A program made the translations under genes and the position numbers. Under the pieces are notes generated by a model, which made no database searches, was not told the DNA's origin, and saw only the letters and a program-made list of their open reading frames with translations. A stretch of 29,003 bases of DNA. Origin: a virus (lineage: Duplodnaviria > Caudoviricetes). This document shows positions 1-28,688 of the stretch, in pieces. Location: positions 1 to 29,003 of the IMG/VR virus record IMGVR_UViG_3300032225_000841; one strand, given 5' to 3'. Every line of letters starts with the position of its first letter. Positions within the stretch are counted from its first letter, which is position 1.

Positions 1-73
1 CATGCCTATACTTAGGCTTGCTTGTCTTAACAATGGCACGGCTGTCACTCATTACGATTGGTTGCTTTAACAT
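1..73 (-). CDS. partial hypothetical protein (runs off window start)
   Basis: ATG at 73 with AAGGAA RBS upstream; open frame MLKQPIVMSDSRAIVKTSKPKYRH to window edge. Confidence 0.55.
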   Translation of the reverse strand, partial: MLKQPIVMSDSRAIVKTSKPKYRH

Positions 74-87
74 TTGTATAGTTCCTT

Positions 88-960
88 TTAGAAGTTGAAT
101 TTATCCAAGATGCTATCAACATCTTTCTTAACGGCTTGTCTTGTGTCGAGGTCTTTGCGTAGGTCATCAACTTCCAAACCATTGATAGCCTGATATAGTG
201 CGATTCGTGCATCTTCTAACTCCTTGTCTTCTGTGATGTTTAAGTCCTTGGCTAATGAACACAACTCCTGCGCAGTATCAAGTAACGAAGCGTGGAACAT
301 ACGTGGTTGTGCCTTACGCCCTGTGTAGTCTACTGTTAGTCTATCCGACATTCTTTTCAGGTGATCTTTCAGTCGGGTCTTGATGTCGCTCATAGCGTTC
401 TCGATACGCTCATCCGCTAAGCTTGCTAACTTCTTACGTAGTTCTTCTTGTGCATCATTACCTACGTCAACCCTAAAGTCACCCGAGGTAGGTACAGGCA
501 TATAGTTCACTCGAAAATCAAAGCGATGCTTGATGTCATCAGGGGTCGGGTATTCGTTGCGGTTAAACATATCACCGAGAGCCATAGCCTGTGCAGTAAT
601 CAAGGTTGGGTAAGTCGTTACGAAGTCATCCACTAGCGCATTGAACTTATCCTCAAACTCTTGCATACGTTGATTGAACTCCATGAATTTAGCGGTAGTC
701 AACAATCTTAAACCACTATCAGACCAAGGCAACGTGACGTCATATAGATAGGTGCGGATAGCGCCTACACATTGGTTAATCGTTTCAAGTTCGGGCCTTC
801 CTGCTAAAAGATTCTTGTTAACTCGAGCCGCACCTTTACTGCCAGCACTCTTGTTTACTAGCACCTCGTCAGTTGTTGTCTTGTCTAGCTTACGTGCTGT
901 CCATTGGCGAACATTAACTTCTACCAACATAGCACAGGTATCAATGTTAAAGCGTGTCAT
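88..960 (-). CDS. conserved phage helical protein (DUF3150-like), third gene of AAA/VWA module
   Basis: 290 aa ORF, AAAGGAAA RBS, largely helical/coiled-coil; directly downstream of the VWA-metallopeptidase. Confidence 0.7.
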   Translation of the reverse strand: MTRFNIDTCAMLVEVNVRQWTARKLDKTTTDEVLVNKSAGSKGAARVNKNLLAGRPELETINQCVGAIRTYLYDVTLPWSDSGLRLLTTAKFMEFNQRMQEFEDKFNALVDDFVTTYPTLITAQAMALGDMFNRNEYPTPDDIKHRFDFRVNYMPVPTSGDFRVDVGNDAQEELRKKLASLADERIENAMSDIKTRLKDHLKRMSDRLTVDYTGRKAQPRMFHASLLDTAQELCSLAKDLNITEDKELEDARIALYQAINGLEVDDLRKDLDTRQAVKKDVDSILDKFNF

Positions 961-986
961 ATTATTTCCTTTCAGTTGTTTTTTGT

Positions 987-2183
987 TTAGCTATAAATTC
1001 TTACAGTCTTACCCTTGTTAGATACAAAGTGGTCATTGTCAACCACACCAAATAGAATCGGACAGTCGGGTAATATGTAGTCTGGTTCTATGTAGCCATC
1101 TGACAATACGATGGTAGCCTTGGGCTTGATTTTGTTGGCAGTCATATACTCTGACACGCACGTTAACCTAGTACCGCCACCACCTTTGGGTTGAAGCATC
1201 TCAGGTATGCGGTGATAGTCTTGCGGTTTAAATATCTGCTCGCCTTCGATGTCGCACTCCCACCATAAGACACGCACTTGCTCAGGCTTAACATTCTCAC
1301 AGATGCGGGCGATCTCACCAAACACAGTACCGTACAAGCCCATCATGGAACCCGAGGTATCGCAAGCAACGACAAGTTCACCAGTAGATTCAGAGAAGTG
1401 ACTAGGCATAAGAATACCCTGAGGTAGTAAGCGTTTGTTAGGTGGTGCAAATCGTGAGTAGTCATCGCCCTCGCATAGCTGAGTAACAAACTCACGTAGA
1501 TGCTCTCGCCAATTAGTGTCACGCTTCATGGTCAGTCTATCTAATGCACTACCGCCACGAGCAGTACCGCGTTCTGCAATACGCTTGGCTAACATCTTGC
1601 CTTGATGCAACGCTTCGCTAATCTCCTGTGCAGTCTTGTCAGCTAACGCTTCTTTGAGTTTGCCCATGATGTGTGAGTCTAACGCATTGCCGTCACCGCC
1701 AGCAGTCGGATCACCGCCTGTTTCCTCACACTCTTTGATTAAGTCTTGCAATACCTCAACGAATGACCAACCAAAATACTTCTTGTCGAGTAATGGTGCG
1801 ACTGCGGTTGGATGTTCTACAAAAGAATGAGTCGGGTCGGTTTCCTCAATAGTGCCATTGACTACATAATCCATAGCCTGATTGCATAGCATAGGATACT
1901 TATCACATAAAGACTTATAGCTAGTGCAATGATGTAGTGCTTTGTGTAGTGACTCATGCAAAACTAAAAACCGCAACTGCTTACGTGTCATGTCTTGAAT
2001 AAAAGCTGGAGAATAAACAACATTACGACCGTCAGTTGCCGCAGTCTTAATGTCATCATCTAGCCTAACATCGCCGACATACACAATGCCTGACAACGTA
2101 GCGAACAATGCGCTGTTACTGATGTCCACATGACACGCTATGATGCGGTCGTTAAGCGACATCTTTTCCCATACTGAACTCAT
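987..2183 (-). CDS. HEXXH metallopeptidase-like + VWA domain protein (DUF2201-like)
   Basis: TAATDG and LHESLH (HEXXH) in the N-terminal half; MIDAS motif DTSGS...GGGT...SDG in the C-terminal half; AGGAG RBS. Confidence 0.88.
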   Translation of the reverse strand: MSSVWEKMSLNDRIIACHVDISNSALFATLSGIVYVGDVRLDDDIKTAATDGRNVVYSPAFIQDMTRKQLRFLVLHESLHKALHHCTSYKSLCDKYPMLCNQAMDYVVNGTIEETDPTHSFVEHPTAVAPLLDKKYFGWSFVEVLQDLIKECEETGGDPTAGGDGNALDSHIMGKLKEALADKTAQEISEALHQGKMLAKRIAERGTARGGSALDRLTMKRDTNWREHLREFVTQLCEGDDYSRFAPPNKRLLPQGILMPSHFSESTGELVVACDTSGSMMGLYGTVFGEIARICENVKPEQVRVLWWECDIEGEQIFKPQDYHRIPEMLQPKGGGGTRLTCVSEYMTANKIKPKATIVLSDGYIEPDYILPDCPILFGVVDNDHFVSNKGKTVRIYS

Positions 2184-2193
2184 AGTAATCTCC

Positions 2194-3315
2194 TTACTTG
2201 CCTGTGAAGTAAATCTTGTTATCTTGCAACATGGTTTGGAATGGCTTGACAGTCACGAAGTTAGATACCCTTGATGATTGTGCAAGGTTGTGACAGAACA
2301 TAGACTGCATCTCTCTACGCATACGCAAGATGTATTCGCATACTGCCTCGGCTTCCTCACGACCGTTAGTTTGTGTAATGCACTTAAGAACTGTAATGAT
2401 CTGCGCCATAGGATTCTCAGGAACAGGGCAAGTCTTAGGTTCTTTAAGGATGCGTGGGAATGGAGGTGTCTGCTCACCGAACTGAATGAAAGACTTGAGC
2501 GACTCAGCACCAGCCTCACCCATCGTGCCTGATAACGCAGACAGCATTGTGTCTGTGTCCATACCATCCTTAGAGTAAACAATGTCTGACGAAGCGTGCA
2601 AGCTACGAGGTGTTACATAAGAAGTCTGCGCCACACTAGGGTTGAAGATGTATGCGTTGTGTGCTTCTTGTCGTTGCCCGTCATACTTAGCGCCTGACTG
2701 ATAGTCAAGGAAGCTATCGAACAATGTCTGACCTATCTCGTCAGTCCATGCAATAACCTCGGGTGCAACACCCTTGTCAATGGCCCACTCACGCCACTCT
2801 AACTGCGTAGGCTTACGCATTTTGACAAACACTAAACGATTGCGGAGGTGCGCTTGAATGGAATCGCCAAGACCCTCGACTGATAAGTTAGTTGCACAGA
2901 AGATTACAGAACCCTCGGGTGCGTGGTAGTTGCCTACTCGTCTTTCGTAAACGATTGGTGCTAGCACATCCTTGATATACTGCCGAGCCTTAGCGATCTC
3001 GTCTAAGAAGATAAGTGCTGGTCGTGAACCGTTGATGCCCTTCTGATTGGTCTTGCTGATACCAAAGCGTTCGTTAGGTAACTCTCGGCTAACACCTTGC
3101 TCACGATCAATGTCAGGCATCCACACCGAGCCGTCAGATAACTGAGTGCAGTCAATGGGGTCAACGTGAATGTGATTGGCAAAGAATGGGTCGTTAGCTA
3201 GGTGGTAGAACAAGCCAGTCTTACCGATACCATTCTCACCCTCGACAATGATGGTGCGCTTGTGACCTACTGCTTTGATGAGTTGTGTAACTTGTTTGAA
3301 TGAAAGCATTTGCAT
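2194..3315 (-). CDS. MoxR-like AAA+ ATPase
   Basis: Walker A GENGIGKT, Walker B LIFLDE, sensor ATN, Arg finger LRNR, sensor-2-like TPRS; adjacent to the VWA gene. Confidence 0.9.
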   Translation of the reverse strand: MQMLSFKQVTQLIKAVGHKRTIIVEGENGIGKTGLFYHLANDPFFANHIHVDPIDCTQLSDGSVWMPDIDREQGVSRELPNERFGISKTNQKGINGSRPALIFLDEIAKARQYIKDVLAPIVYERRVGNYHAPEGSVIFCATNLSVEGLGDSIQAHLRNRLVFVKMRKPTQLEWREWAIDKGVAPEVIAWTDEIGQTLFDSFLDYQSGAKYDGQRQEAHNAYIFNPSVAQTSYVTPRSLHASSDIVYSKDGMDTDTMLSALSGTMGEAGAESLKSFIQFGEQTPPFPRILKEPKTCPVPENPMAQIITVLKCITQTNGREEAEAVCEYILRMRREMQSMFCHNLAQSSRVSNFVTVKPFQTMLQDNKIYFTGK

Positions 3316-3397
3316 AATGAACTACCTTTCTATGTTGTTAATGAACTGCGTGAGGTACTACTTATAGTTGTTTTGGGTGTTACCCCATGATGATACT

Positions 3398-3421
3398 CCT
3401 GTGTCCATAGTTAGACACAGG
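3398..3421. promoter_or_regulatory. palindromic operator-like site CCTGTGTC-N8-GACACAGG (core TGTCCA-N4-TAGACA)
   Basis: 8-bp perfect inverted arms in intergenic DNA upstream of the AAA gene; related site at 8191-8206, half-site at 7487-7495. Confidence 0.5.
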
Positions 3422-3456
3422 TACAAACCCTAATACTACGGGTAGTGCTACTGATA

Positions 3457-4431
3457 CTAGGTGAAGTATTTTCTAGGTACTGTTTCCATGAACTGACCCC
3501 AAGGTGTCTTGACTGTGCCTGTCTTGAGGTCTGCAACACCGAGTAATCTGCTGGTCATTGCTTTCTTGAACTCCTCGGCGGTGACTTCTTCTGCTACCTC
3601 ATGTTGTTTCTTAAAGAGTGCTTGTTGCTCGTCATTAGACTTACCCCACATACGGAACAGACTGCCTTGCCAACGCTCACCCTCAGGTATGTAGTTGTAA
3701 ACCTTGTGGCTAGCCGAGATGTTGAACACCGCTTGCCCTAAGTCTAAGAACGCTTCGATATAACGTGGGTCTTCGGTGTTAGCTTCACCTACACTACGGG
3801 CAGTTTCCTCAAACCTACTGATCTCGATTGGTGCGTTGCGCCATGCAGTACCGAATGGCTGACCGAGTTCTTCTTTGATCTGCACGCTGGCTCTGTACTC
3901 AGGTAGCCTGAACATGGCAAGCGTCATAAGGGTGTCGAGTTTAGCTTTGAACTCTTTGCGTCTTTGCTTATCCTCTGCGCTTGACTTGTATGTGTAGATG
4001 TCTTTGTGCCATGACTTGCCTTTGATTAGTAGTCCGTCTTGATTGAAGTAAAGGGTTGCAGATGGTGTATGTTGTCCTTGTGAACTATCCCAGCTAGCTA
4101 CGTAAGGAACCACAACTTGCTTGCCCTCTGTCGTTGTTAAGTTATGGTAGTTAAGACCTTGCTCATACATAAATATGTTAGTGGTTTGGCTAGCGTAGTA
4201 GTTCATTTCTACATAGCGTGTACCGTCTGCTTCGGGTGGGTAGAAGGTTGCTACCTTGGTGTTGTACAAGCGATAGTAGATAGCGCCGTCTGATGTTTTG
4301 TGTATGCCCATATGATCTGCCGATACGTTTCTTAAATACCTTGGGCTATCGGGCATAGACAACCACTTCTTACTGCGTGTTGGTTGCTTGCTGTGTTCGT
4401 ACTGTCCTAATGCTTCTTCGTATGTTCTCAT
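3457..4431 (-). CDS. hypothetical protein (324 aa from MRTYEE)
   Basis: ORF track gives 3457-4515; ATG at 4431 has a strong RBS (CAACGAAAGGAAA) and is the likelier start. Confidence 0.75.
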   Translation of the reverse strand: MRTYEEALGQYEHSKQPTRSKKWLSMPDSPRYLRNVSADHMGIHKTSDGAIYYRLYNTKVATFYPPEADGTRYVEMNYYASQTTNIFMYEQGLNYHNLTTTEGKQVVVPYVASWDSSQGQHTPSATLYFNQDGLLIKGKSWHKDIYTYKSSAEDKQRRKEFKAKLDTLMTLAMFRLPEYRASVQIKEELGQPFGTAWRNAPIEISRFEETARSVGEANTEDPRYIEAFLDLGQAVFNISASHKVYNYIPEGERWQGSLFRMWGKSNDEQQALFKKQHEVAEEVTAEEFKKAMTSRLLGVADLKTGTVKTPWGQFMETVPRKYFT

Positions 4432-4545
4432 TTGATTTCCTTTCGTTGAGTTTGCTTCTAAAAATTTTAAGTGTCGTAGGTATATCGTTTGTCTTGCATA
4501 GTAATAGTAACTCACACCATCTCTCCCTCCTCGTTGTGTTTGGTT

Positions 4546-5178
4546 TCAGTTAAATGAGATAGATATGTTCTGTAACTTCTCCTCTATCAGTTCTGCTAGC
4601 TTTTCTTCTACAACACCGTCAATCACGCTATCTACTTTGTCCTGCACTATGTCATGAATGTCGCAATGATCCTCGATGTTGAAGTTGTATGAGAAGTAGT
4701 TGTCCACCTCATCACTAACCTTATCCGATACTGCTTCGCTAACCAACTCATCAAAGTCTTGAGCATCTACGGCTTGCCCCACCGTTTCTGTAAACCATTC
4801 AGCATTTTGAAGCACAGTATCCACAGCCTCACGCAGGCCCTCGCCCCCTGACACTGGTTGCTCTTGCTTATTATTAGTCTGTGTTTGTAGTTCTAGGATG
4901 GCGTTGACAAGGGTAGTAAATGATTGTGTAAGTTGTTGTGCTAGTTGATGTATGTTTGGTTTTGCTTGGGGTGATGTATCTACCGCCCTATACTGCGCCC
5001 CTGTTGCGCCTTGTATGATTGTGCTTGTGTCTGTGGTGGAGGTATTCTCCACGAAGGTGTTGCTCTTGCCTTCACCCATCTTCTCTAGTGTAGCTTTCCC
5101 TAATTCAATCATCGCTTCTTCTTCCTCTCTTGTTGGTATGTCGGTTGGTGTTAAGTCCTGCATTGTGAATGTTGTCAT
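4546..5178 (-). CDS. hypothetical acidic protein
   Basis: 210 aa, RBS AAAGGAAA, very Asp/Glu-rich helical C-terminal half. Confidence 0.75.
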   Translation of the reverse strand: MTTFTMQDLTPTDIPTREEEEAMIELGKATLEKMGEGKSNTFVENTSTTDTSTIIQGATGAQYRAVDTSPQAKPNIHQLAQQLTQSFTTLVNAILELQTQTNNKQEQPVSGGEGLREAVDTVLQNAEWFTETVGQAVDAQDFDELVSEAVSDKVSDEVDNYFSYNFNIEDHCDIHDIVQDKVDSVIDGVVEEKLAELIEEKLQNISISFN

Positions 5179-5318
5179 GCTATTTCCTTTAGTTTTACTT
5201 GTTCAAGAATGTGTGATGCTAGTGCTACCAAGTCAGGGTCGTTTATAAAATAGAACTCAACCGCCCTATTTAATGCTTGTATGTCGCCTTCGTTTAGTGT
5301 TAGTTGTATTGTTGTCAT
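5175..5318 (-). CDS. small hypothetical protein (47 aa, MTTIQLTLNEGDIQALNRAVEFYF...)
   Basis: Not in ORF track; ATGA overlaps with both neighbours; AAGGA RBS. Confidence 0.7.
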   Translation of the reverse strand: MTTIQLTLNEGDIQALNRAVEFYFINDPDLVALASHILEQVKLKEIA

Positions 5319-5506
5319 GCTGTCATTTCCTTTCTTACTGCGTTGATTGCATCCATCGGGTCTTTTGCCATGATCTGCACTACGTGTGGTTGCCAGTCCC
5401 CACCTGATTCTTTAAGTTCAAACTCAACCTCATGTAGCGCCATTTCGTCAATACTATCCTTGTCTATACATCTGCCATATACATTTCTAAACTCGACCAT
5501 ACTCAT
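5315..5506 (-). CDS. hypothetical protein
   Basis: 63 aa, AAGGAG RBS, ATGA coupling to neighbours. Confidence 0.7.
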   Translation of the reverse strand: MSMVEFRNVYGRCIDKDSIDEMALHEVEFELKESGGDWQPHVVQIMAKDPMDAINAVRKEMTA

Positions 5507-5916
5507 GCTAGTTCTCCTTCGGTTGTTAAGATTGGTTTCATTTGGTTCTCATCTACGCACACATCTATGCTTCGGTTAATACTGGTGTAGTCCCACAGGT
5601 CGTCATAGTCCCCGTCTTCCTCGATCTCTATGTCCTCTAGTTCTTCACCGATACGGGTAAACCTATACCCTGCGCCCTCGAATAACTCCACCGCCTGTAA
5701 GAAGATTTGGGTATGCGCCTTGACATCAGGGTATGAGTCATACCACTTCACATCATCAGCGTGGAAGAACAGCTTGTTATCTTCTAGTTTGCTAAGTTCT
5801 TTGAGAGCCTGTGCGGTGTGCTCGTCGTTTGCCACGATCAGCATATTTATATACGCTTCCCTATCTGCGCTATCTTTGAACGCTACTACATATGCTACCT
5901 CTGATCTATACCCCAT
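5503..5916 (-). CDS. hypothetical acidic protein (MGYRSEV... early phage protein)
   Basis: 137 aa, GGGGG RBS-like element, acidic RIGEELEDIEIEEDGDYDD stretch. Confidence 0.8.
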   Translation of the reverse strand: MGYRSEVAYVVAFKDSADREAYINMLIVANDEHTAQALKELSKLEDNKLFFHADDVKWYDSYPDVKAHTQIFLQAVELFEGAGYRFTRIGEELEDIEIEEDGDYDDLWDYTSINRSIDVCVDENQMKPILTTEGELA

Positions 5917-6001
5917 AAACCCCCCTGATTGAAAGACGAACTACTGATAAAAGAATAACTAAAGCTACGATAACTACTCCAAACACTAATCTATCTGCCA
6001 T
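5906..6001 (-). CDS. 31-aa single-pass membrane peptide
   Basis: Not in ORF track; GGAGG RBS; MADRLVFGVVIVALVILLSVVRLSIRGVYGV. Confidence 0.55.
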   Translation of the reverse strand: MADRLVFGVVIVALVILLSVVRLSIRGVYGV

Positions 6002-6089
6002 AAAAACCTCCTGTATAAAAAAAGATATGTGCCAACATGAAGGCCCATATCAACGCCAACGCTATCCTAGTAATCCAATCGCCATTCAT
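5991..6089 (-). CDS. 32-aa hydrophobic membrane peptide
   Basis: Not in ORF track; ATGA overlap with the upstream gene, GGAGG RBS; MNGDWITRIALALIWAFMLAHIFFYTGGFYGR. Confidence 0.6.
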   Translation of the reverse strand: MNGDWITRIALALIWAFMLAHIFFYTGGFYGR

Positions 6090-6304
6090 AACATTACCCT
6101 CCGTAAGCCTAGTTTAAAGAAGGTCTGCGTGGTGTAGAGATACCCGTCATCCCCTGTTAGATACCGCACCCTAGCTTCCTCGCTTTCCTCATGTAGTTCT
6201 AGTAGTTCGTAGCGTGAGTAGAATCCTTTCCTATCTTTTAGTGTGACCCACTCGTTTTCTTGTACCTCTCTGCCTGTTTTGTTATTGATTACCATTGTCT
6301 TCAT
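6086..6304 (-). CDS. hypothetical protein
   Basis: 72 aa, AGGAG RBS. Confidence 0.75.
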   Translation of the reverse strand: MKTMVINNKTGREVQENEWVTLKDRKGFYSRYELLELHEESEEARVRYLTGDDGYLYTTQTFFKLGLRRVML

Positions 6305-6818
6305 GATGTTTCTCCTGTTGTGTAAGTTGTTTGGGTAGTTGCTTTGGTCGTGGGAATAGCTTGCGTTTGGTAGAGAACTTAGTTCGATATGGTATTGCTT
6401 CGTATCTTTCTAGTAACTTAGCTTTCTCTACGCTATCAACCCAATCAGTCCAGTCCCGTTTAGTTCTGTCTGTGTTTATCGGAGTTGCCTCTCGCTTCTG
6501 TTTGTAGGTGTTTAGTATGTGTCGTGTGTTGAGTAGGCAGTCCAAGTAAGCTAAATAAAACAAGTGCAGTTCGGGGTTGTGCTTTGCGTGGTATTTAGTA
6601 TTGATCTTGATGATGTTGATGTGGTTAGTTAGTGGCCTTATGAGATCGCACCACCTTCGGTATCTGACTTTGTTTTCAATGCGTTGCTTATTGATTTGTT
6701 TCTTACGCTTGGTTACATCTTCTTTTATTTGTTCGATTGTGTTTAGTGGTAGGTTTCGTTTAGTTAGTAAGTTGTGTAACTTGTTTTTTGAAATCTTTGT
6801 GTAAGATGTGTGCCTCAT
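6282..6818 (-). CDS. hypothetical basic protein adjacent to putative origin
   Basis: 178 aa, Lys/Arg-rich, AAAGGAA RBS. Confidence 0.7.
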   Translation of the reverse strand: MRHTSYTKISKNKLHNLLTKRNLPLNTIEQIKEDVTKRKKQINKQRIENKVRYRRWCDLIRPLTNHINIIKINTKYHAKHNPELHLFYLAYLDCLLNTRHILNTYKQKREATPINTDRTKRDWTDWVDSVEKAKLLERYEAIPYRTKFSTKRKLFPRPKQLPKQLTQQEKHHEDNGNQ

Positions 6819-6849
6819 TTGTTCCTTTCAGGTGGAGAAATCCTCCACT

Positions 6850-7165
6850 TGTCCTAGTTTTGTCCACTTTTGTCCACTTCTGTCCTAGCTTTATTAGCTT
6901 TTGTCCCGTGCTATGGACACCCGCTAGCCCTTATTGTATATGCCTTTGTTGATAGTGTGTTCCGATTTCCAGTAGTTTTTAGGAAAAGATAAACACCAAG
7001 AGGAAAGGGAAGTTCCAAGAATGTCCACTTATATAAGCCTATATATATAAATATCTTTATCTTTAATTATATATATACATTGTGGACACAAGTGGACAGG
7101 ACTCATATAGAATAAGGGTTAGCGGTTGACCATCGGTTTGTCTGAGGGCTAATAAAGCTAGGATT
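6850..7165. other. putative replication origin: iterons, AT-rich core and symmetric inverted repeats
   Basis: TGTCC repeats at 6850/6861/6871/6881/6902/7022 and inverted GGACA at 6915/7084/7094; AT-rich TATA tracts 7030-7080; two inverted-repeat pairs with a common centre at 7023. Confidence 0.6.
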
Positions 7166-7170
7166 TTGTC

Positions 7171-7198
7171 GGACTACTGTATATAACACCAGTAGTCC
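7171..7198. terminator. hairpin GGACTACTG-N10-CAGTAGTCC
   Basis: 9-bp perfect stem just downstream of the 7208-7450 gene; no clear U-tract. Confidence 0.35.
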
Positions 7199-7207
7199 CA
7201 TGTTTCA

Positions 7208-7450
7208 CTATACTCTCGCCATTTCCCATTCCTTTCTGTGTATCTCTGCGAGCCTTATAGTGGTCATAGCGACCCATTCGCCATCGAGTTGATCCTCCCC
7301 CCTTAACTTCATGACAGCGTTGATAGCGGGCTTGCTATGGGCATAGATTTGGGGTTTGTTTTTTGTGTTGCGCTTGAACTCCATGATGAGTCCATCTTTT
7401 TTGTATACAACTACAAAGCCTACGGGGTTGCGTTTAGTTTGGTTTAGCAT
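7208..7450 (-). CDS. hypothetical protein
   Basis: 80 aa, AAAGGAG RBS. Confidence 0.75.
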   Translation of the reverse strand: MLNQTKRNPVGFVVVYKKDGLIMEFKRNTKNKPQIYAHSKPAINAVMKLRGEDQLDGEWVAMTTIRLAEIHRKEWEMARV

Positions 7451-7493
7451 GGTGTTGCTCCTTTAGTTGAGTTTAGTGATGCGAGGTTAGACA

Positions 7494-7531
7494 CAAAACG
7501 AAACAGCGCAGAAGCCTCGCACTCCTGCGCT
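7494..7531 (-). terminator. intrinsic terminator/attenuator after first early gene
   Basis: Minus-strand stem AGCGCAGGAG/CTTCTGCGCT followed by GTTTCGTTTTG. Confidence 0.5.
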
Positions 7532-7556
7532 TTCCTAACTTCTTTGTAAAGCATGA

Positions 7557-7970
7557 TTAAATCTTCGCTAAGAAAGCCTTGCGTTGTGTTGGTGTGAGTG
7601 CTTTGAACTGTGTAAGTAACTTGGTAACTACATCAGGCTTAGCTTTCGTAGTCGGTTTGGTGGAGGTTTTCTCCACTTGGCTTGGCATATAGTATTTAAG
7701 CATAGCCCTTGCACACTCACTCTCATCACTCGCACCGTTCTTCTTAGCTTCAAAGCCTAGCGAACCTGCATAACTACCTTTGGTAATCTCGATTGTGGGA
7801 ACTCGTTTCTTAATACTGATGAGCCTTGCTATGTTGCTACGCACCTCTAGCTGTGCGTTGATGGTCATGCTGTTAAACACAGGGGCAAACTTCTGCATAG
7901 CATCACCGAGATCAAACCCTGCGTTGATGTGCTTCTCTACTGCATTGATGTAGTTAGTAACTTGTTTCAT
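7557..7970 (-). CDS. first gene of early (leftward) operon, hypothetical
   Basis: 137 aa, AAGGAG RBS, directly behind an extended -10 promoter. Confidence 0.8.
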   Translation of the reverse strand: MKQVTNYINAVEKHINAGFDLGDAMQKFAPVFNSMTINAQLEVRSNIARLISIKKRVPTIEITKGSYAGSLGFEAKKNGASDESECARAMLKYYMPSQVEKTSTKPTTKAKPDVVTKLLTQFKALTPTQRKAFLAKI

Positions 7971-8025
7971 GGTATAGCTCCTTCGTTGTGTATCGGCTTA
8001 GCACAATGCCTTACTCGATACCTCT

Positions 8026-8034
8026 ATTATACCA
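8026..8034 (-). promoter_or_regulatory. extended -10 sigma70 promoter (TGGTATAAT) for leftward early genes
   Basis: Perfect TGnTATAAT about 55 nt upstream of ATG 7970. Confidence 0.6.
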
Positions 8035-8190
8035 AATGGGCTACTAGCCGTAGTATAGATTTAGCCTATTCTGACCCCACTACACCCCCACCAAGCCTAA
8101 TTTGGCTGACCATGCCCACTGCGCCCTAACACTATTCCTCAGCCATAATTTAATTTTTTGTCAAATTTTGTAAAAAAATCACGCAGTCTA

Positions 8191-8206
8191 TGTCAAATCT
8201 TAGACA
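8191..8206. promoter_or_regulatory. operator-like imperfect palindrome TGTCAA-N4-TAGACA
   Basis: Same architecture as the site at 3402-3417. Confidence 0.45.
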
Positions 8207-8336
8207 CAAAAATAGATAATGGGGGTATAAAAGGTACCCATAGGTACCAAAAAGGAACCTTAACTACAACCTGTAGGTATCAAAAGTTTCCCGATCAAGC
8301 AATTCTGCTAAAAAAATAGGCAAAAACAACTAAATA

Positions 8337-8350
8337 TTCCCGATCGGGAA
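8337..8350. promoter_or_regulatory. perfect 14-bp palindrome TTCCCGATCGGGAA
   Basis: Seen directly; partial copy TTCCCGATC at 8288-8296; abuts the promoter below. Confidence 0.5.
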
Positions 8351-8351
8351 A

Positions 8352-8382
8352 TGTTGCAGTGCAACAAAATGTAACGTATACT
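8352..8382 (+). promoter_or_regulatory. sigma70 promoter TTGCAG-N17-TATACT overlapped by palindrome TGTTGCAGTGCAACA (PhaR-box-like)
   Basis: -35 at 8354-8359, -10 at 8377-8382; 15-bp palindrome 8352-8366 with TGC-N3-GCA core. Confidence 0.65.
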
Positions 8383-8428
8383 ATACAAAATGGGAAAATA
8401 GTTTCCCAAACTAAACAAAGGAAAAATC

Positions 8429-8563
8429 ATGTACACACAATTTGAAAAAGCAGTTAAGCAGTACGAAGAGCTTGTAGACCGCGTAAAAGAAGTAAATGAG
8501 TTTTGGCTTCAGTCGACTTTGTCGACAATGAAAGAGTTTTTCAAAATAGCTAAAAACAAATAA
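8429..8563 (+). CDS. 44-aa amphipathic helical protein, putative mini-phasin
   Basis: Not in ORF track; AAAGGAAA RBS, own promoter; MYTQFEKAVKQYEELVDRVKEVNEFWLQSTLSTMKEFFKIAKNK with 3/4 hydrophobic periodicity. CDS is likely; the phasin call is inference. Confidence 0.7.
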   Translation: MYTQFEKAVKQYEELVDRVKEVNEFWLQSTLSTMKEFFKIAKNK

Positions 8564-8572
8564 AATAAATAA

Positions 8573-8660
8573 GGGCAGTTAAGCCGACACAGAAGGATGT
8601 AGCAAGTTAAAATTTTTTCGGCTTTCCTTTTAACGCGCAGTAGCTACCAAATTCTTGCCC
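8573..8660 (+). ncRNA. putative pseudoknotted structured RNA (~88 nt)
   Basis: Nested pairs GGGC/GCCC, AAGGAT/ATTCTT, GTAGC/GCTAC, GTTAAAA/TTTTAAC plus pseudoknot AAGCCGA(8581-87)/TCGGCTT(8618-24). Confidence 0.6.
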
Positions 8661-8667
8661 AACAAAT

Positions 8668-8698
8668 AAAAAACCCCCGGGCGTTTTAAGTCCGGGGG
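8668..8698 (-). terminator. intrinsic terminator of the sRNA
   Basis: CCCCCGG...CCGGGGG stem followed by UUUUUUAUUUG on the minus strand. Confidence 0.75.
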
Positions 8699-8746
8699 CA
8701 AACCTCACACCGATGGCACAACGAAAGGAGAAGTAAAACCACCGGT
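8668..8746 (-). ncRNA. putative anti-Shine-Dalgarno sRNA (~79 nt)
   Basis: Extended -10 TGCTATACT (8761-8753); 5' stem ACCGGUGG/CCAUCGGU with loop UUUUACUUCUCCUUUCGUUGUG; GC hairpin + U6 terminator (8698-8668). Confidence 0.7.
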
Positions 8747-8829
8747 AAAGAAAGTATAGCAAAATAAAAGCAAGTGGTGTACACTACACCCAATCGTGAA
8801 CCCATCCACGCAACCAAAGGGATTAAGAC

Positions 8830-9432
8830 TTGCTACTAGACCATCTAGTTTCAGCAAAAGCAGCAGACTACGCTCCGGAAACACTACCGGACGAGACCCT
8901 TTTCGTCCCCATTAAAGACGCTAGCGTAAAAGAAACTATCGACGCCCAGGTAAATACGGCAGATTGGCTAAAAACCATAACAGATGACGACGACGAGTTG
9001 CTAGATAGAGCGCAAGAACAGCGGGTAGGCGAAGCATTTGGTGCATTAATAACGCAAAGTCCTGATACAAAAGAAAAATTTCTAGAATTAGAACTTCCAG
9101 AAGAGGTAAAAAGCGCTGTGTCTATGGTAACGGCGTATCAATGGAAGTTTGTAGAGCAAGCCCAAGAGTTACGTTCAATGAGCGTGGCCAAAATAGTCAA
9201 AGAAACCGATCACCCCGACGCTCGGATAAGATTAAAAGCATTGGAGTTACTTGGTAAAGTAACCGAAGTAGCGCTATTTACGGATAGAGTTGAAGTAAAG
9301 AAAACAGAACTAAGCGACGAAGACCTAGAAGCGCAAATTAAGAAAAAGTTAGAAAAATACATGGGTGTGGTAGATGTTACAGACGTAACAGACATAGAAG
9401 ATGTAGAAATACCACAAAAAGAAGACAAATGA
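8830..9432 (+). CDS. terS: terminase small subunit (probable)
   Basis: Directly upstream of and ATGA-coupled to terL; C-terminal RLKALELLGK...LFTDRVEV motif typical of TerS; TTG start. Confidence 0.75.
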   Translation: MLLDHLVSAKAADYAPETLPDETLFVPIKDASVKETIDAQVNTADWLKTITDDDDELLDRAQEQRVGEAFGALITQSPDTKEKFLELELPEEVKSAVSMVTAYQWKFVEQAQELRSMSVAKIVKETDHPDARIRLKALELLGKVTEVALFTDRVEVKKTELSDEDLEAQIKKKLEKYMGVVDVTDVTDIEDVEIPQKEDK

Positions 9433-10961
9433 ATCTTGACTTTTTAACCCCGCAAGAAGCTATGGCTGCGCGATTAGCTTTGAAAGACATGACAACAGAA
9501 GAAAAAGTTGCGTTTTTAGAAGAGCTAGAAGAAAAAGAAAGACGGTTTGAATTAAAAAAAGCGCAGACTGATCCAATTTCTTTTGCTAGGGCCGTGTATC
9601 CGGGTTTCAAAGTGGGGCCCCACCACCGCAAACTAGCCAAGATATTTCAAGATGTAGTTGATGGTAAGAAAAAGCGCGTAATTATTAATATTGCACCACG
9701 TATGGGCAAAAGCGAATTCTCAAGCTATTTGTTTCCGGCATACTTTCTAGGTAATTACCCTAATAAAAAAATTATCATGGGAACCCATACGGCAAGCTTG
9801 TCAGAAGATTTTGGACGGCGAGTCCGAAATTTAATTGAGAGCGAAGACTATGAAAAGATTTTCCCAAACACAGTTATATCAGACGATCAAAAAGCCGCAG
9901 GTAAGTGGAGCACTGGTGCTGGCGGGCAGTATTATGCTGCTGGCGTCGGGGGTGCCTTGGCAGGACGAGGCGCTGACTTGTTTGTTATTGACGATCCCCA
10001 TTCTGAACAGGACATGAAGGCAAACAGCCGCTTAGCATTTGACTCGGCGTGGTCTTGGTTTCAAACAGGCCCACTACAACGTCTAATGCCAGGCGGTGCG
10101 ATTATTGTCATTATGACAAGATGGAGCTTGCTTGACCTTACGGGTCGCTTAATTGATTATCAGATTAAAAACCCAAACACAATTCCATGGGAAATAGTAG
10201 AACTGCCAGCAATTGTTAATGCAGACACGGAAGATGAGAAATCGTTGTGGCCTGCGCAGTGGAGTTTAGAAGCACTAAAAAACACCAGAGCGTCTATTGA
10301 CGCACGCTTCTGGAACGCGCAATACATGCAAAACCCAACCGGGGATACTAGTGCCATCATTAAACGCAGCGACTGGCAAATTTGGGAACCTGAAGACCCG
10401 CCTCAAGTAGAATACGTAATTCAGTCTTGGGATACTGCGTTTGAAACAAAAACAACATCTGACTACAGCGCATGCACAACTTGGGGCGTTTGGTATAACG
10501 AAGAAGACGGCAACTCCCCCAATTTAATTCTTCTTGATGCTTTTAAAGACCGGATGACCTTTCCAGAACTAAAAGCTACAGCGCTTAAACACTACGAAGA
10601 ATGGAAGCCAGACGCATTTATAGTGGAGAAAAAGGCCAGTGGAGGTCCACTGATTCAAGAATTAAGGCGTATGGGTATACCCGTAGATGAGTACACACCA
10701 AGCCGCGGTAATGATAAGTTGGCTAGGGTTAACGCGGTATCTGATTTATTTGCCTCAAAAAAAGTCTGGGCTCCAGATAGGCGGTGGGCCAAAGACGTGA
10801 TAGAAGAAATGGCAGCTTTCCCGGTGGGCGAACACGATGACTTTGTGGATACGACAACGCAAGCATTATTAAGATACAGAAATGGTGGGTTTATTAGTTT
10901 AGATACTGACGAGCGTGACGAGCCGTCATACAAATACAGACGAAAGGCAGCGTACTACTGA
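9429..10961 (+). CDS. terL: terminase large subunit
   Basis: Walker A-like APRMGKS, Walker B FVIDDP, coupling motif MTRW, RNase H-like nuclease SWDTA...HDDFVD. Confidence 0.95.
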   Translation: MNLDFLTPQEAMAARLALKDMTTEEKVAFLEELEEKERRFELKKAQTDPISFARAVYPGFKVGPHHRKLAKIFQDVVDGKKKRVIINIAPRMGKSEFSSYLFPAYFLGNYPNKKIIMGTHTASLSEDFGRRVRNLIESEDYEKIFPNTVISDDQKAAGKWSTGAGGQYYAAGVGGALAGRGADLFVIDDPHSEQDMKANSRLAFDSAWSWFQTGPLQRLMPGGAIIVIMTRWSLLDLTGRLIDYQIKNPNTIPWEIVELPAIVNADTEDEKSLWPAQWSLEALKNTRASIDARFWNAQYMQNPTGDTSAIIKRSDWQIWEPEDPPQVEYVIQSWDTAFETKTTSDYSACTTWGVWYNEEDGNSPNLILLDAFKDRMTFPELKATALKHYEEWKPDAFIVEKKASGGPLIQELRRMGIPVDEYTPSRGNDKLARVNAVSDLFASKKVWAPDRRWAKDVIEEMAAFPVGEHDDFVDTTTQALLRYRNGGFISLDTDERDEPSYKYRRKAAYY

Positions 10962-17963: not shown

Positions 17964-17995
17964 AAAAAACCCAGCTCACAAGGCTGGGTTTTTTT
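17964..17995. terminator. bidirectional intrinsic terminator
   Basis: AAAAAACCCAGC...GCTGGGTTTTTTT between the convergent MCP and HNH genes. Confidence 0.85.
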
Positions 17996-18326
17996 CTTCG
18001 TAGTGGTGGATTCTGTGGCAGTTAGCGCATAGAACTATGCACTTTTTTATTTCTTCGTATGCTTTTTTAAATTGCTTGTTAGAGATTAAACGGTTAACGT
18101 TATGCTCTTTGGTGCGCGGGTCTTCGTGGTGAAAATCTAGTGCTGCTGTGTGGTTAAAACCGCATTTTGTACATTTAAGTGTACGTTTAAATGTATCCCA
18201 CTCTGCTTTTAACCGTGCTTTATTTTCACTTAACCGCTGCCTTGTTTCTTCTTGGTTAGCCAAGTAGTGTTTACGGCTGTACTCCGCATGTTTGGCTTTT
18301 CTTACGTTCGCGTCTTTGTACGGCAT
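17976..18326 (-). CDS. HNH endonuclease
   Basis: CTKCG...LDFHH...KCIVLCANCHRIHH; probable start MPYKD at 18326. Confidence 0.85.
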   Translation of the reverse strand: MPYKDANVRKAKHAEYSRKHYLANQEETRQRLSENKARLKAEWDTFKRTLKCTKCGFNHTAALDFHHEDPRTKEHNVNRLISNKQFKKAYEEIKKCIVLCANCHRIHHYEEKNPAL

Positions 18327-18759
18327 CTGGATGTACTTTATATTTCCAATAGATTGCGTTGCGAAAGCCCCACGGTTGTCCGGGCTGATAGATTTTGAAA
18401 CCCGCATTGATTAACGAGTTTGATGATGCTGGATTGTTTGTTGTATCGGTTATTAACCAATTCCATCCTAGCTTTCTTGCCTGTTTAACTCGCGCCAGTA
18501 TAAGTCTTTTTTGTAAACCGTGTCCAGTATATCCGTCTAATACGCCGGCTCTACATAAATAACCTGTATCGCTCCATTTGATCGAGCGGACCAAACCCGC
18601 AAAAGCGACAGGCTTTCCATCCTCCGCATACGCAATCCACCAATGACCCCGATCCGGTTGATAGGGTGTATCCATTGGAAGTATTTTCTTTTGCAAAAAA
18701 AGCAGTGTGGTTTGAACTGAGGGGACTCGGATGTCCACTTTTTTTATTGTAAATTTCAT
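18271..18759 (-). CDS. GNAT family acetyltransferase
   Basis: YLCRAGV...YTGHGLQKRL (acetyl-CoA motif A), NPASSNSLINAGF (motif B). Confidence 0.85.
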   Translation of the reverse strand: MKFTIKKVDIRVPSVQTTLLFLQKKILPMDTPYQPDRGHWWIAYAEDGKPVAFAGLVRSIKWSDTGYLCRAGVLDGYTGHGLQKRLILARVKQARKLGWNWLITDTTNNPASSNSLINAGFKIYQPGQPWGFRNAIYWKYKVHPDAVQRRERKKSQTCGVQP

Positions 18760-26831: not shown

Positions 26832-28688
26832 ATGGCAAATTTTCCAGTATTTCACGGCATTACCCTTGCGGCTAATGCTTATGTCGAGAACTTAAATCTC
26901 GAAATCCTCTCAACAGATCCAACACCGGTTGCAGCTGGTCGTGTTTGGTTTAATTCAGTTGATAAAGTTGTAAAGTATTCAGCACTTAATGGTTCTGGTG
27001 CTGTTGTAGTTAAGACAATCAGCGACGTTGATTCTGCTGCTGCTGCTCTTGAAACTGTTCGTGCTTCTTTAGCTGCTAGCATTACTGCTGAAGCTGCTGC
27101 TCGTACAGCTGGCGACGCTGCTACTTTAGCATCTGCTGGTTCTTACACAGACGCTGCTTTAGTTACAGCCAAGGCTTACACAGACGCTGCTAAAGCTGAA
27201 CTATTAGGTGGTATTCCTCCTGCTTTATTGGACACAATCACTGAATTAGCTGCTGCACTGCAAAACAACCCAGATATCGTTAGCGTTATCGAAGGTATGG
27301 TTAACACAGTTCAAAGCAATTTGACTGCTGAAATCACTCGTGCACAAGCTGCTGAAGCCACAAACGCATCTGCTATTGCTGCTGAAACAACCGCACGTCA
27401 AAACGCTATTTCTTCTGAAGCTACTACTCGTGCTTCTGCTGATACTGCATTAGACACTCGTGTAACAAACTTAGAGAGCCAAACAAACGGTAAAGTTGGT
27501 AGCCTTTCTGACTTAACAACATCTAATAAGTCAACTATTGTTGCAGCTATTAATGAAGTTAAGGCTGATGGTGTAACTAACGCTACTGCTATTTCTTCTG
27601 AAACTAGCCGTGCAACTACTGCCGAAGCTGGTCTGGCATCAGATATTGCTGCTGAAACAACACGTGCTACTACTGCTGAATCAGGTCTGCATTCTGACAT
27701 TACTTCTGAAGCTACTGCCCGTGCAGCTGGTGATACAACTAACGCAAACGCAATTGCTGCAGAAACAACCCGTGCGCAAGCTGCTGAAGCTGGTCTGTCA
27801 TCTGACATCGCTGCTGAAGCAACTGCCCGTGCAGCCGCTGTAACTGCCGAAAAGAACCGTGCTGAAGCTGCTGAAGCAACATTAACAACAGCTATTGCTT
27901 CTGAGGCAACTGCTCGTGCTGCTGCCGTAACTGCAGAAAAGAATCGTGCTGAAGGCGTTGAGGCTACATTATCTTCAAGCATTTCTGCTGAAACAACACG
28001 TGCACAAACTGCTGAAGCTGGTTTAGCAAGCGACATCTCTGCTGAGACTTCTGCTCGTCAATCTGCTATTTCTGCAGAAGCGACTGCTCGTGCTGCTGGT
28101 GATGCTACAAATGCTTCTGCTATCTCTGCAGAGACAACACGTGCTCAAACTGCTGAGGCTGGTCTAGCATCTGATATTTCAGCTGAAGCTTCTGCTCGTA
28201 CTACAGCAATTAACACTGAGAAGACTCGTGCTCAAACTGCAGAAGCTGGTTTGGCAAGTGATATTTCTGCTGAAACTAGCCGTGCTCAAACTGCTGAAGG
28301 TGCATTGTCAACAGCAATTACTGCTGAAACAAACCGTGCTACAGCTGCTGAGACAACACTAACAGCGGCAATTTCTGCTGAAGTTACTCGTGCTCAATCT
28401 GCTGAATCTGCTGAAGCAACTGCTCGTGCCGCTGCTGATACTCAGATTCGTCACGATTACAACGCAACAATCTTCACATTTGAAGCTCAATCAGCTGCAA
28501 CAACACACACTATCGTTCATAACTTGAATGCTAGTTTTGTTGAAATCGCTGTTAAGGTTCAACGTGCTGATGGCTTGTATTACAACGACATCGTGTCTGT
28601 TCAAGAATTTGACGCAAACACAGTTAAAGTATACTTGTCTACAGCCTTGAAGGTTAAAGCAATTGTACGTAACGCAGTAACATTGTAA
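26832..28688 (+). CDS. long coiled-coil fibre protein
   Basis: 618 aa; N-terminal GRVWFN and LDTITELAAAL fibre motifs, Ala/Thr/Glu repeats, C-terminal HNLN domain; GGAG RBS. Confidence 0.85.
   Translation: MANFPVFHGITLAANAYVENLNLEILSTDPTPVAAGRVWFNSVDKVVKYSALNGSGAVVVKTISDVDSAAAALETVRASLAASITAEAAARTAGDAATLASAGSYTDAALVTAKAYTDAAKAELLGGIPPALLDTITELAAALQNNPDIVSVIEGMVNTVQSNLTAEITRAQAAEATNASAIAAETTARQNAISSEATTRASADTALDTRVTNLESQTNGKVGSLSDLTTSNKSTIVAAINEVKADGVTNATAISSETSRATTAEAGLASDIAAETTRATTAESGLHSDITSEATARAAGDTTNANAIAAETTRAQAAEAGLSSDIAAEATARAAAVTAEKNRAEAAEATLTTAIASEATARAAAVTAEKNRAEGVEATLSSSISAETTRAQTAEAGLASDISAETSARQSAISAEATARAAGDATNASAISAETTRAQTAEAGLASDISAEASARTTAINTEKTRAQTAEAGLASDISAETSRAQTAEGALSTAITAETNRATAAETTLTAAISAEVTRAQSAESAEATARAAADTQIRHDYNATIFTFEAQSAATTHTIVHNLNASFVEIAVKVQRADGLYYNDIVSVQEFDANTVKVYLSTALKVKAIVRNAVTL
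27320..28450 (+). repeat. degenerate coding tandem repeats (18-aa AETTRAQTAEAGLASDIS and 11-aa AEATARAAAVT units)
   Basis: Many imperfect copies visible in protein and DNA. Confidence 0.85.

Follow-up and report, generated by a model that had tools for sequence, protein, structure and literature searches.

The window analysed here is the whole of the virus contig IMGVR_UViG_3300032225_000841 (29,003 bases, with an estimated completeness of 44%), which by its gene content is a fragment of a lake podophage related to HTVC023P. Its early arm forms a purged block (1-8100) from which the words CCGG, GCWGC, CCWGG, GGWCC and GAGAC are gone and CGCG, CASTG, CGWCG and CCAGA nearly so, and which runs off the contig at base 1. 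This purge is a real, strong and clade-wide trait, and it stops within a conserved non-coding element on the side of the terminase genes. The purge itself, its specificity for palindromes, its edge, its gradient, its dependence on lineage and the lack of methyltransferase genes were all computed directly. It seems likely that the genome has a fixed end near position 8100, that the early arm enters the cell first, and that an early function then protects the rest.

Missing words in the early arm

A first-pass annotation of the window had read positions 1-8670 as free of CCGG, GCWGC, CCWGG and GGWCC, and computed counts bear this out, all four being zero there against 46, 80, 9 and 14, respectively, in 8671-29003. 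The first CCGG (8677) and the first GCWGC (8860) lie where that annotation had placed them, and GCAG and CTGC are indeed still common on the left (22 and 46 occurrences on the plus strand). It had also noted that two Ala-Ala pairs on the left are written so as to avoid GCWGC; the only two GCNGC words there (827 and 2038) are of the GCSGC form and lie in the genes holding both pairs. The boundary drawn at 8670 is merely the position of the first CCGG, the edge of the purge actually lying at about 8100, and base 1 is the end of the contig and not the other boundary. Further scarce words in 1-8100 are GAGAC/GTCTC (none) and CASTG, CGWCG and CCAGA (one each).

Synonymous codons of the 11 left genes were shuffled in 400 rounds, and this leaves the deficit unexplained: where no site is observed, 7.0 CCGG and 6.0 GCWGC were expected (no shuffle was as low), as were 5.2 CCWGG (P 0.005) and 5.0 GGWCC (P 0.0025). 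CGCG (1 observed vs 15.4 shuffled) and AATT (5 vs 30.4) are scarce as well. The right genes give 38 vs 40.0 for CCGG, 71 vs 67.0 for GCWGC, 12 vs 15.6 for GGWCC and 7 vs 21.4 for CCWGG, one 432-nt gene of the 17,520 nt having been taken on the wrong strand in this control. CCWGG is therefore partly avoided on the right too. Decay of 5-methylcytosine as the cause of the missing words was rejected because its product CTGG is not enriched (0.34 vs 1.48), other products being near parity or mildly raised.

The contrast between the two arms does not stem from misassembly or chimerism, because a 3,708-nt contig from a public run, which may be the source sample, covers 5153-8860 with one difference and thereby crosses the boundary, and because the gene order of the window is the same in complete relatives. 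Two other public runs (X2 and X3), with small shares only, did not enter the evidence.

A clade-wide purge of lineage-specific words

The relatives compared are ten uncultured records (G001 to G010), seven of them 95-100% complete and 61-67 kb long. Palindrome sets of their own are absent from the 9 kb upstream of the terminase genes in G001, G002, G003, G006, G007, G008, G009 and G010; CCGG-free stretches in G004 and G005 are short only. CCGG and GCWGC are commonly among the purged words, joined by GATC in G001, G002, G008 and G010, by GTAC in G003, G006 and G007, and by ACGT in G006, G008, G009 and G010. CCWGG is avoided genome-wide in nine of the ten relatives (observed/expected 0-0.02 outside the block) and retained in G009. 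Avoidance thus comes in two tiers in G001 to G008 and G010, CCWGG being avoided genome-wide and the other words in the early arm only; GGWCC is avoided genome-wide in G001, G002, G008 and G010.

An unbiased scan covered 586 words of four or five letters. Of the 40 clusters examined (54 loci at 90% identity), 33 had a palindrome purged upstream of the conserved element and two had one purged downstream of it. Palindromes make up 48 of the 586 words yet account for 90 of the 168 upstream purge events, against 2 of the 36 downstream. Up to eight different palindromes are purged per lineage, throughout the coding sequence.

These figures bear on the possibility that host methylation lies behind the purge, because modification-dependent (Type IV) enzymes of the next host would attack methylated early DNA or because the methylation would disturb early expression. 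GATC, CCWGG, CCGG and GCWGC are common methylation targets, which counts in favour of such an explanation, as does the rarity of the cognate HpaII-type enzyme in one candidate host family. Some purged words are, moreover, listed as Type IIM/IV targets (PMC6286503). The number of palindromes lost throughout coding sequence nevertheless goes beyond regulatory need, and host methylation would still need early exposure; sequence alone cannot separate it from a purge driven by restriction. We consider it improbable.

Orthologous genes of the DUF3150, VWA and ATPase module (described below) were compared between genomes. ACGT stands at 12 vs 13.8 (observed vs shuffled) in the window and at 0 vs 13.9 in G006, GATC is lost in G008 alone (0 vs 15.0), and the orthologues in G004 keep CCGG (15 vs 11.8) and GCWGC; the aligned differences are mostly synonymous. 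With orthologues losing different words by lineage, the purge therefore depends on where a gene lies and on the lineage rather than on the gene itself or its codon usage. The same data speak to the idea of an exchangeable early arm whose codon usage or mutational history is its own, the missing words being a by-product. Codon usage does differ between the arms (AAG 96 vs AAA 67 on the left, AAG 90 vs AAA 226 on the right), the early arm preferring AAG, ATC and TTC, and early gene content is variable among relatives. Against this, codon shuffles within the arm keep the words, different lineages lose different words in orthologous genes, the same block occurs with different gene sets (G001 and G002 have no ATPase module), the depletion extends to core replication genes, and the purged words are biased towards palindromes. 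The module explanation is largely refuted by these observations, and we give it hardly any credence.

A sharp edge within a conserved element

The element in which the purge ends, GACCCCAC-N-CCCCCACC followed about 35 bp on by ACACT (8073-8138, plus strand), is non-coding, precedes the first early gene by about 100 bp and is a putative packaging or terminus signal. Its strict pattern is matched in the window and in six of the ten relatives; G001 and G007 have variants of it, and G009 a weak variant. It was not found in cultured phages, its profile finds nothing in the HTVC023P/MinM2 group, and Rfam gives no match in window 1-9500. Among 93 unique loci with the element, most of them retrieved with the element pattern itself, 85 match the small terminase, all on the same strand and at a median of 332 bp downstream. 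A TATAAT hexamer (8026-8031, minus strand) upstream of the first early gene, conserved in relatives and unlisted by the promoter scan, is a putative early promoter.

The edge was tested out of sample, with word sets defined away from it, on 34 of 133 unique loci (many being too short), which are not independent of one another. Between -1500 and +25 of the element, 8 sites were observed where about 410 were expected; the corresponding figures are 6 and 6.7 for +25 to +50, and 173 and 255 for +50 to +1000. The purge ends 25-30 bp into the element, at about 8100 in the window, where the first avoided word beyond the edge is CASTG at 8117.

Inside the block, some 1 kb from the presumed end, lies an AT-rich non-coding core between inverted repeats (6820-7165; inverted arms I1, I4 and I10), which on its layout we infer to be origin-like. 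An AT-rich core with three inverted-arm pairs is found in the same arrangement upstream of the gene for a 178-aa protein in all nine relatives examined; GC skew located no origin. The occurrence of this core within the block in the window and in those nine relatives would fit a purge that guards the neighbourhood of a replication origin instead of first-entering DNA. Yet the block ends about 1 kb to the right of the core and runs more than 10 kb to its left, and a cut anywhere in an unreplicated genome should harm equally, which makes protection of an origin very unlikely in our view.

A gradient on the far side

On its far side the purge is near-complete for 10-12 kb, the strict zone ending at about 10-13 kb, and it fades over about 25 kb. 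In seven near-complete genomes, the avoided word sets (observed over codon-shuffled) stand at 0-0.11 within 10.5 kb, except for a value of 0.25 in one part of G009, a range in which the first 10 kb is in-sample; going further upstream of terL they stand at 0.19-0.69 at 10.5-14 kb, 0.09-0.82 at 14-18 kb and 0.25-1.01 at 18-22 kb, and from terL onwards at 0.76-1.21. Six control palindromes are flat along the genome. The depletion reaches core replication genes, and the CCGG-free stretch of G006 continues about 3.3 kb beyond its DUF3150 gene. The far side is a gradient, and a sharp two-step border like that of T5 finds no support. If DNA entered progressively from a fixed end, an abrupt border on one side and a slope on the other would be expected; headful packaging, in which the first-entering DNA is random, would not produce this pattern (PMC12455610).

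The gradient tracks the leftward transcription unit as well as the distance from the end, and this would also suit rapid entry of the whole genome under the same selective agent, with the late DNA shielded (for example by a co-ejected LPD38 protein of 2,200-3,100 aa) and the early arm exposed for transcription. Relatives do encode giant LPD38 proteins, and DarA and DarB of phage P1 offer a precedent (PMC12455610). Shielding accords poorly, however, with an edge that falls, to within about 30 bp, in a conserved non-coding element lying ahead of the promoter, and six LPD38 proteins scanned contain no methyltransferase-like domain; we regard it as unlikely. The giant LPD38 proteins (2,186-3,144 aa) are found in G001 to G003 and G006 to G008 (e.g. 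L137:2322-9758), have no other Pfam domain and are probably ejected with the DNA.

A proposed model of genome entry and protection

From the sequence evidence we propose where the genome physically ends, in which order and how fast it enters, that restriction is the selective force, and what the host and the protector may be. The virion DNA would have a fixed end at or just beside the element (window about 8075-8105), and packaging would begin at the element towards the terminase genes and finish with the early arm, so that the early arm, from 8100 leftwards, would enter the cell first and progressively. Until early proteins accumulate, any host Type II-like site in the entered DNA would be lethal, so that words would be selected out of the first 10-12 kb and, ever more weakly, out of the next 10-15 kb. 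An early phage function other than a DNA methyltransferase would make later-entering sites harmless, if not for all specificities, because CCWGG is avoided genome-wide in most relatives. The word set of each lineage would reflect which restriction systems its host population (probably Betaproteobacteria) carries.

The restriction-proofing proposed by the first-pass annotation fits the restriction-type palindromes, the early-type genes, the sharp edge on the terminase side, the graded far side in complete relatives and the spread of the trait through the clade; its edge at 8670, a T5-like sharp far border and a phage methyltransferase as protector find no support. The methyltransferase families PF00145, PF01555 and PF02086 were each found in none of nine records, seven of them at least 90% complete, and a phage methyltransferase was rejected as protector on this ground. 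Entry of the early arm first has experimental precedent in position-dependent restriction (PMC12455610, PMC10644984). It is also favoured by the homologues of the relatives' early genes, which lie about 5-7 kb into many Autographiviridae records and in the terminal repeats of Caulobacter phages.

Several observations weigh against this model. Among assembled contigs, few ends fall close to the element (L209 at -1, L434 at -21 and L106 at +31), suggestive as these three are, and there is no clear pile-up of contig ends among 214 family-like loci, many of them cut at 300-bp flanks. The cultured relatives MinM2 and HTVC023P have no purged block, seven of the 40 clusters show no palindrome purge, the relatives in the clade comparisons are not independent of one another, and the first 10 kb of the gradient is in-sample. 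An HpaII-family enzyme, the one CCGG enzyme family searched for, occurs in one of 151 genomes of the Methylophilaceae, a candidate host family. No early protein matches a known anti-restriction family. Finally, AATT and A/T runs are two- to seven-fold rarer in 1-8000 than in the late arm, which implies a second, non-restriction pressure in the early arm.

A bolder extension of the model can be offered tentatively: the dozen unnamed early genes of this abundant clade may hide a broad, modification-free inhibitor of Type II systems of many specificities (CCWGG excepted), the gradient may be a clock of entry, and islands of Betaproteobacteria, some with restriction genes, may have copied the terminus signal so that these virulent phages package them.

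Early genes and candidate protectors

All long genes left of about 8000 read leftwards and comprise DUF3150-like, DUF2201 peptidase/VWA and MoxR-like ATPase genes and eight small unknowns. The candidate protectors are two basic proteins (7557-7970 and 6282-6818) together with the acidic cluster of 4546-5916, all on the minus strand. The first early gene (7557-7970) codes for a basic 137-aa protein, near-universal in the clade, whose profile matches nine of the ten relatives (six of them in the alignment); it has 126 distant relatives, with no named PHROG among the 63 scanned. The 178-aa basic protein (6282-6818), which adjoins the origin-like core, is likewise near-universal and has no family match, its profile matching nine of the ten relatives (those nine in the alignment). 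The acidic cluster consists of a 210-aa protein with no family match (4546-5178, net charge -28), a small 63-aa protein taken from the listing of open reading frames (ORFs) (5315-5506) and a 137-aa protein (5503-5916, net charge -20), the first and the last being DNA-mimic candidates by charge only. The acidic 137-aa protein is present in five of the ten relatives and has 485 homologues, none of them named, the Atlas giving unnamed viral clusters. This cluster is also found in close relatives, others having instead an acidic protein of 430-590 aa and an M28-like peptidase. The ORF listing adds, on the same strand, a small 72-aa protein (6086-6304) and a small basic 80-aa protein (7208-7450). 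Pfam, PHROGs, NCBIfam, PADLOC, PDB profiles and the Atlas gave no hit that would assign these early proteins a function. An expression screen would be small, since the candidate genes number about a dozen and two of these are near-universal.

An operator-like palindrome, GTGGAG-N5-CTCCAC, occurs three times among the first early genes (5036-5052, 6832-6848 and 7660-7676), twice within coding sequence; there are four copies in G003, three in G006 and none in the other relatives.

Further left on the minus strand are an early protein of 324 aa (3457-4431), with no Pfam, PHROG, NCBIfam or PADLOC match and with orthologues in six of the ten relatives, a MoxR-like AAA ATPase of 373 aa (2194-3315; phrog_1297; about 24% identity to Vequintavirus MoxR ATPases), a DUF2201 metallopeptidase-like and VWA-like protein of 398 aa (987-2183; PF13203 and PF09967) and a DUF3150-like protein of 290 aa (88-960; PF11348 at E 2.5e-5, just under the cut-off). 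The MoxR/VWA/DUF3150 module was rejected as protector, being neither necessary (it is absent from the purged G001 and G002) nor sufficient (it is present in unpurged loci). The Vequintavirinae, owners of the closest cultured ATPase, do not resist restriction, the BASEL paper describing them as exceptionally sensitive to it.

Copies of the element in betaproteobacterial islands

The element pattern has 38 matches in bacterial and archaeal genomes. When these were scored with a profile built from 99 phage copies, the top ten proved to be titled as Betaproteobacteria throughout (Methylophilaceae, Methylotenera, Limnohabitans, Polaromonas, Comamonadaceae and others). No phage terminase or early genes were found at these bacterial loci. 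A tRNA gene is present in six of the ten best, with the element 177-185 bp downstream in three and 392 and 772 bp downstream in two; in 5 of 14 metagenome loci with no terminase, a tRNA ends 161-196 bp upstream of the element. L525 carries a 7.5-kb integrase-AlpA island, and there the element lies about 190 bp inward from the far att repeat. Inward-pointing copies about 180 bp inside tRNA-integrated islands are seen in L525:2652-10270, L526:7500-10342, L493, L511, L516, L518 and L498, of which L526 is a 2.7-kb integrase island and L516 runs on into a Type I restriction operon. Few genomes of these taxa carry the element (3 of 251 and 1 of 127), which fits accessory DNA.

It is possible that these islands are satellites or defence islands packaged by this virulent clade, in which the integrase family PF00589 was found in none of five relatives at least 90% complete (serine recombinases were outside the search). 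A packaging signal is the simplest reading of the element, because phage-inducible chromosomal islands (PICIs) carry functional helper cos sites (PMC6092414). L525 resembles the Gram-negative PICIs described there in its tRNA att repeat, integrase, AlpA and phage element near att; unlike them, it has no primase or replicase family match, and its putative helper would be a virulent podophage. The copies in islands suggest that the phage hosts are Betaproteobacteria, so that the shared element serves as a clue to the host as well as pointing to satellites of a virulent phage.

Comparison with known systems

The principle, that restriction depends on the position of a site, is known from T5 and Murciavirus (PMC10644984, PMC12455610); what is new here is the breadth of the purge, its gradient and its precise edge. 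In T5 and BF23 (Tequintavirus), sites matter in the first ~10 kb only, the first-step transfer (FST) DNA, and PMC10644984 presents the protector of later DNA as unknown there too. How T5-like phages tolerate Type II sites beyond first-entering DNA is an open question in that paper, and the present clade shows T5-like logic far more strongly. Comparison of the sequences indicates that the system of the window is not of the T5 type: 14 T5 pre-early proteins (A1, A2 and Dmp among them) gave no BLASTP hit at E 0.01 and no profile match to the early proteins of 11 genomes, and the FST of T5 keeps CCGG, GCWGC, GATC, GTAC, ACGT and CGCG, only GGWCC of 16 words being absent from its first 10 kb. The far edge, too, is graded in this clade, unlike that of the T5 FST. 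A T5-type terminal repeat of about 10 kb, equal to the DNA that enters first, would be collapsed in circular assemblies such as those of the relatives.

As in the Autographiviridae (T7, Murciavirus), the genome is of the podovirus type, the first promoter lies near the presumed end, the early genes read inwards and restriction would act on a sub-genomic scale (PMC12455610). Murciavirus involves a single Type I motif and was studied experimentally, whereas here up to eight Type II-like palindromes per lineage were found in sequence data. The early proteins have no Pfam, PHROG or NCBIfam match to Ocr or SAM hydrolase, and no phage single-subunit RNA polymerase was found among the proteins scanned, a dedicated whole-genome search not having been run. 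The HTVC023P-type phages and the Synechococcus phage MinM2 group share structural genes with the window (TerL 46-53%, portal 42-44% and major capsid 63-73% identical, with GroES), and MinM2 has the DUF3150-VWA-MoxR module in common with the window; HTVC023P has no block, and MinM2 avoids GTAC and GANTC genome-wide.

Conjugative plasmids likewise have leading regions that enter first; their codon usage is distinct, and in some groups motifs are depleted there (10.1101/2025.04.03.647016). The ATPase module of the window also recalls the anti-restriction pair Vcrx089 and Vcrx090 of IncC plasmids, of which Vcrx089 is an AAA protein of the MoxR type that counters Type I and some Type II systems (PMC7498323, PMC11602122). 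Unlike Vcrx089 (AAA_5 and CbbQ_C), the ATPase of the window has no CbbQ_C and a weak AAA_2 match only; among its plasmid matches, the best 15 of 58 hits are about 24% identical and none is named IncC.

Surveys made over whole genomes, such as PMC6286503, lack positional resolution, as remarked in PMC12455610, and whole-genome avoidance statistics would overlook a regional purge of this kind. Read along the genome, a purge could show where the virion DNA probably ends (to about 30 bp), from which side it enters and which restriction specificities occur in uncultured hosts. Related literature includes PMC8594841, PMC9599517 and 10.64898/2026.02.22.706922; no paper on a regional purge in this clade was found, subscription papers being outside coverage.

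Other features of the window

Uncultured relatives of the phage are abundant, and megablast of window 1-9000 against cultured phages gave no match. TerL, portal, capsid, GroES and a family A polymerase (PF00476, matched in the relative G003) are held in common with HTVC023P-type podoviruses, to which the TerL of the window is 49-53% identical. A Pelagibacter host is typical of that group; the host clues here point to Betaproteobacteria. Between the conserved element and the terminase genes, outside the purge, is an ORF of 44 aa (8429-8563, plus strand), after which a GC-rich hairpin carries the first two CCGG sites. From 8830 the genes are mostly rightward and code for a probable terminase small subunit, the terminase large subunit, portal, GroES, capsid and adaptors. 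The small subunit (8830-9432, plus strand) is so named by position only, being conserved directly upstream of terL and having no family match in Pfam or PHROGs; the large subunit (9429-10961, plus strand) matches PF03237, PF17289 and phrog_38, and both lie outside the purge. Within the structural operon, a GNAT acetyltransferase and an HNH endonuclease are encoded on the minus strand (17976-18759), and G006 has both too. Towards the right end (26832-28688) a 618-aa alanine-rich repeat protein is encoded, where GCWGC is very dense, with 23 sites in one kilobase.

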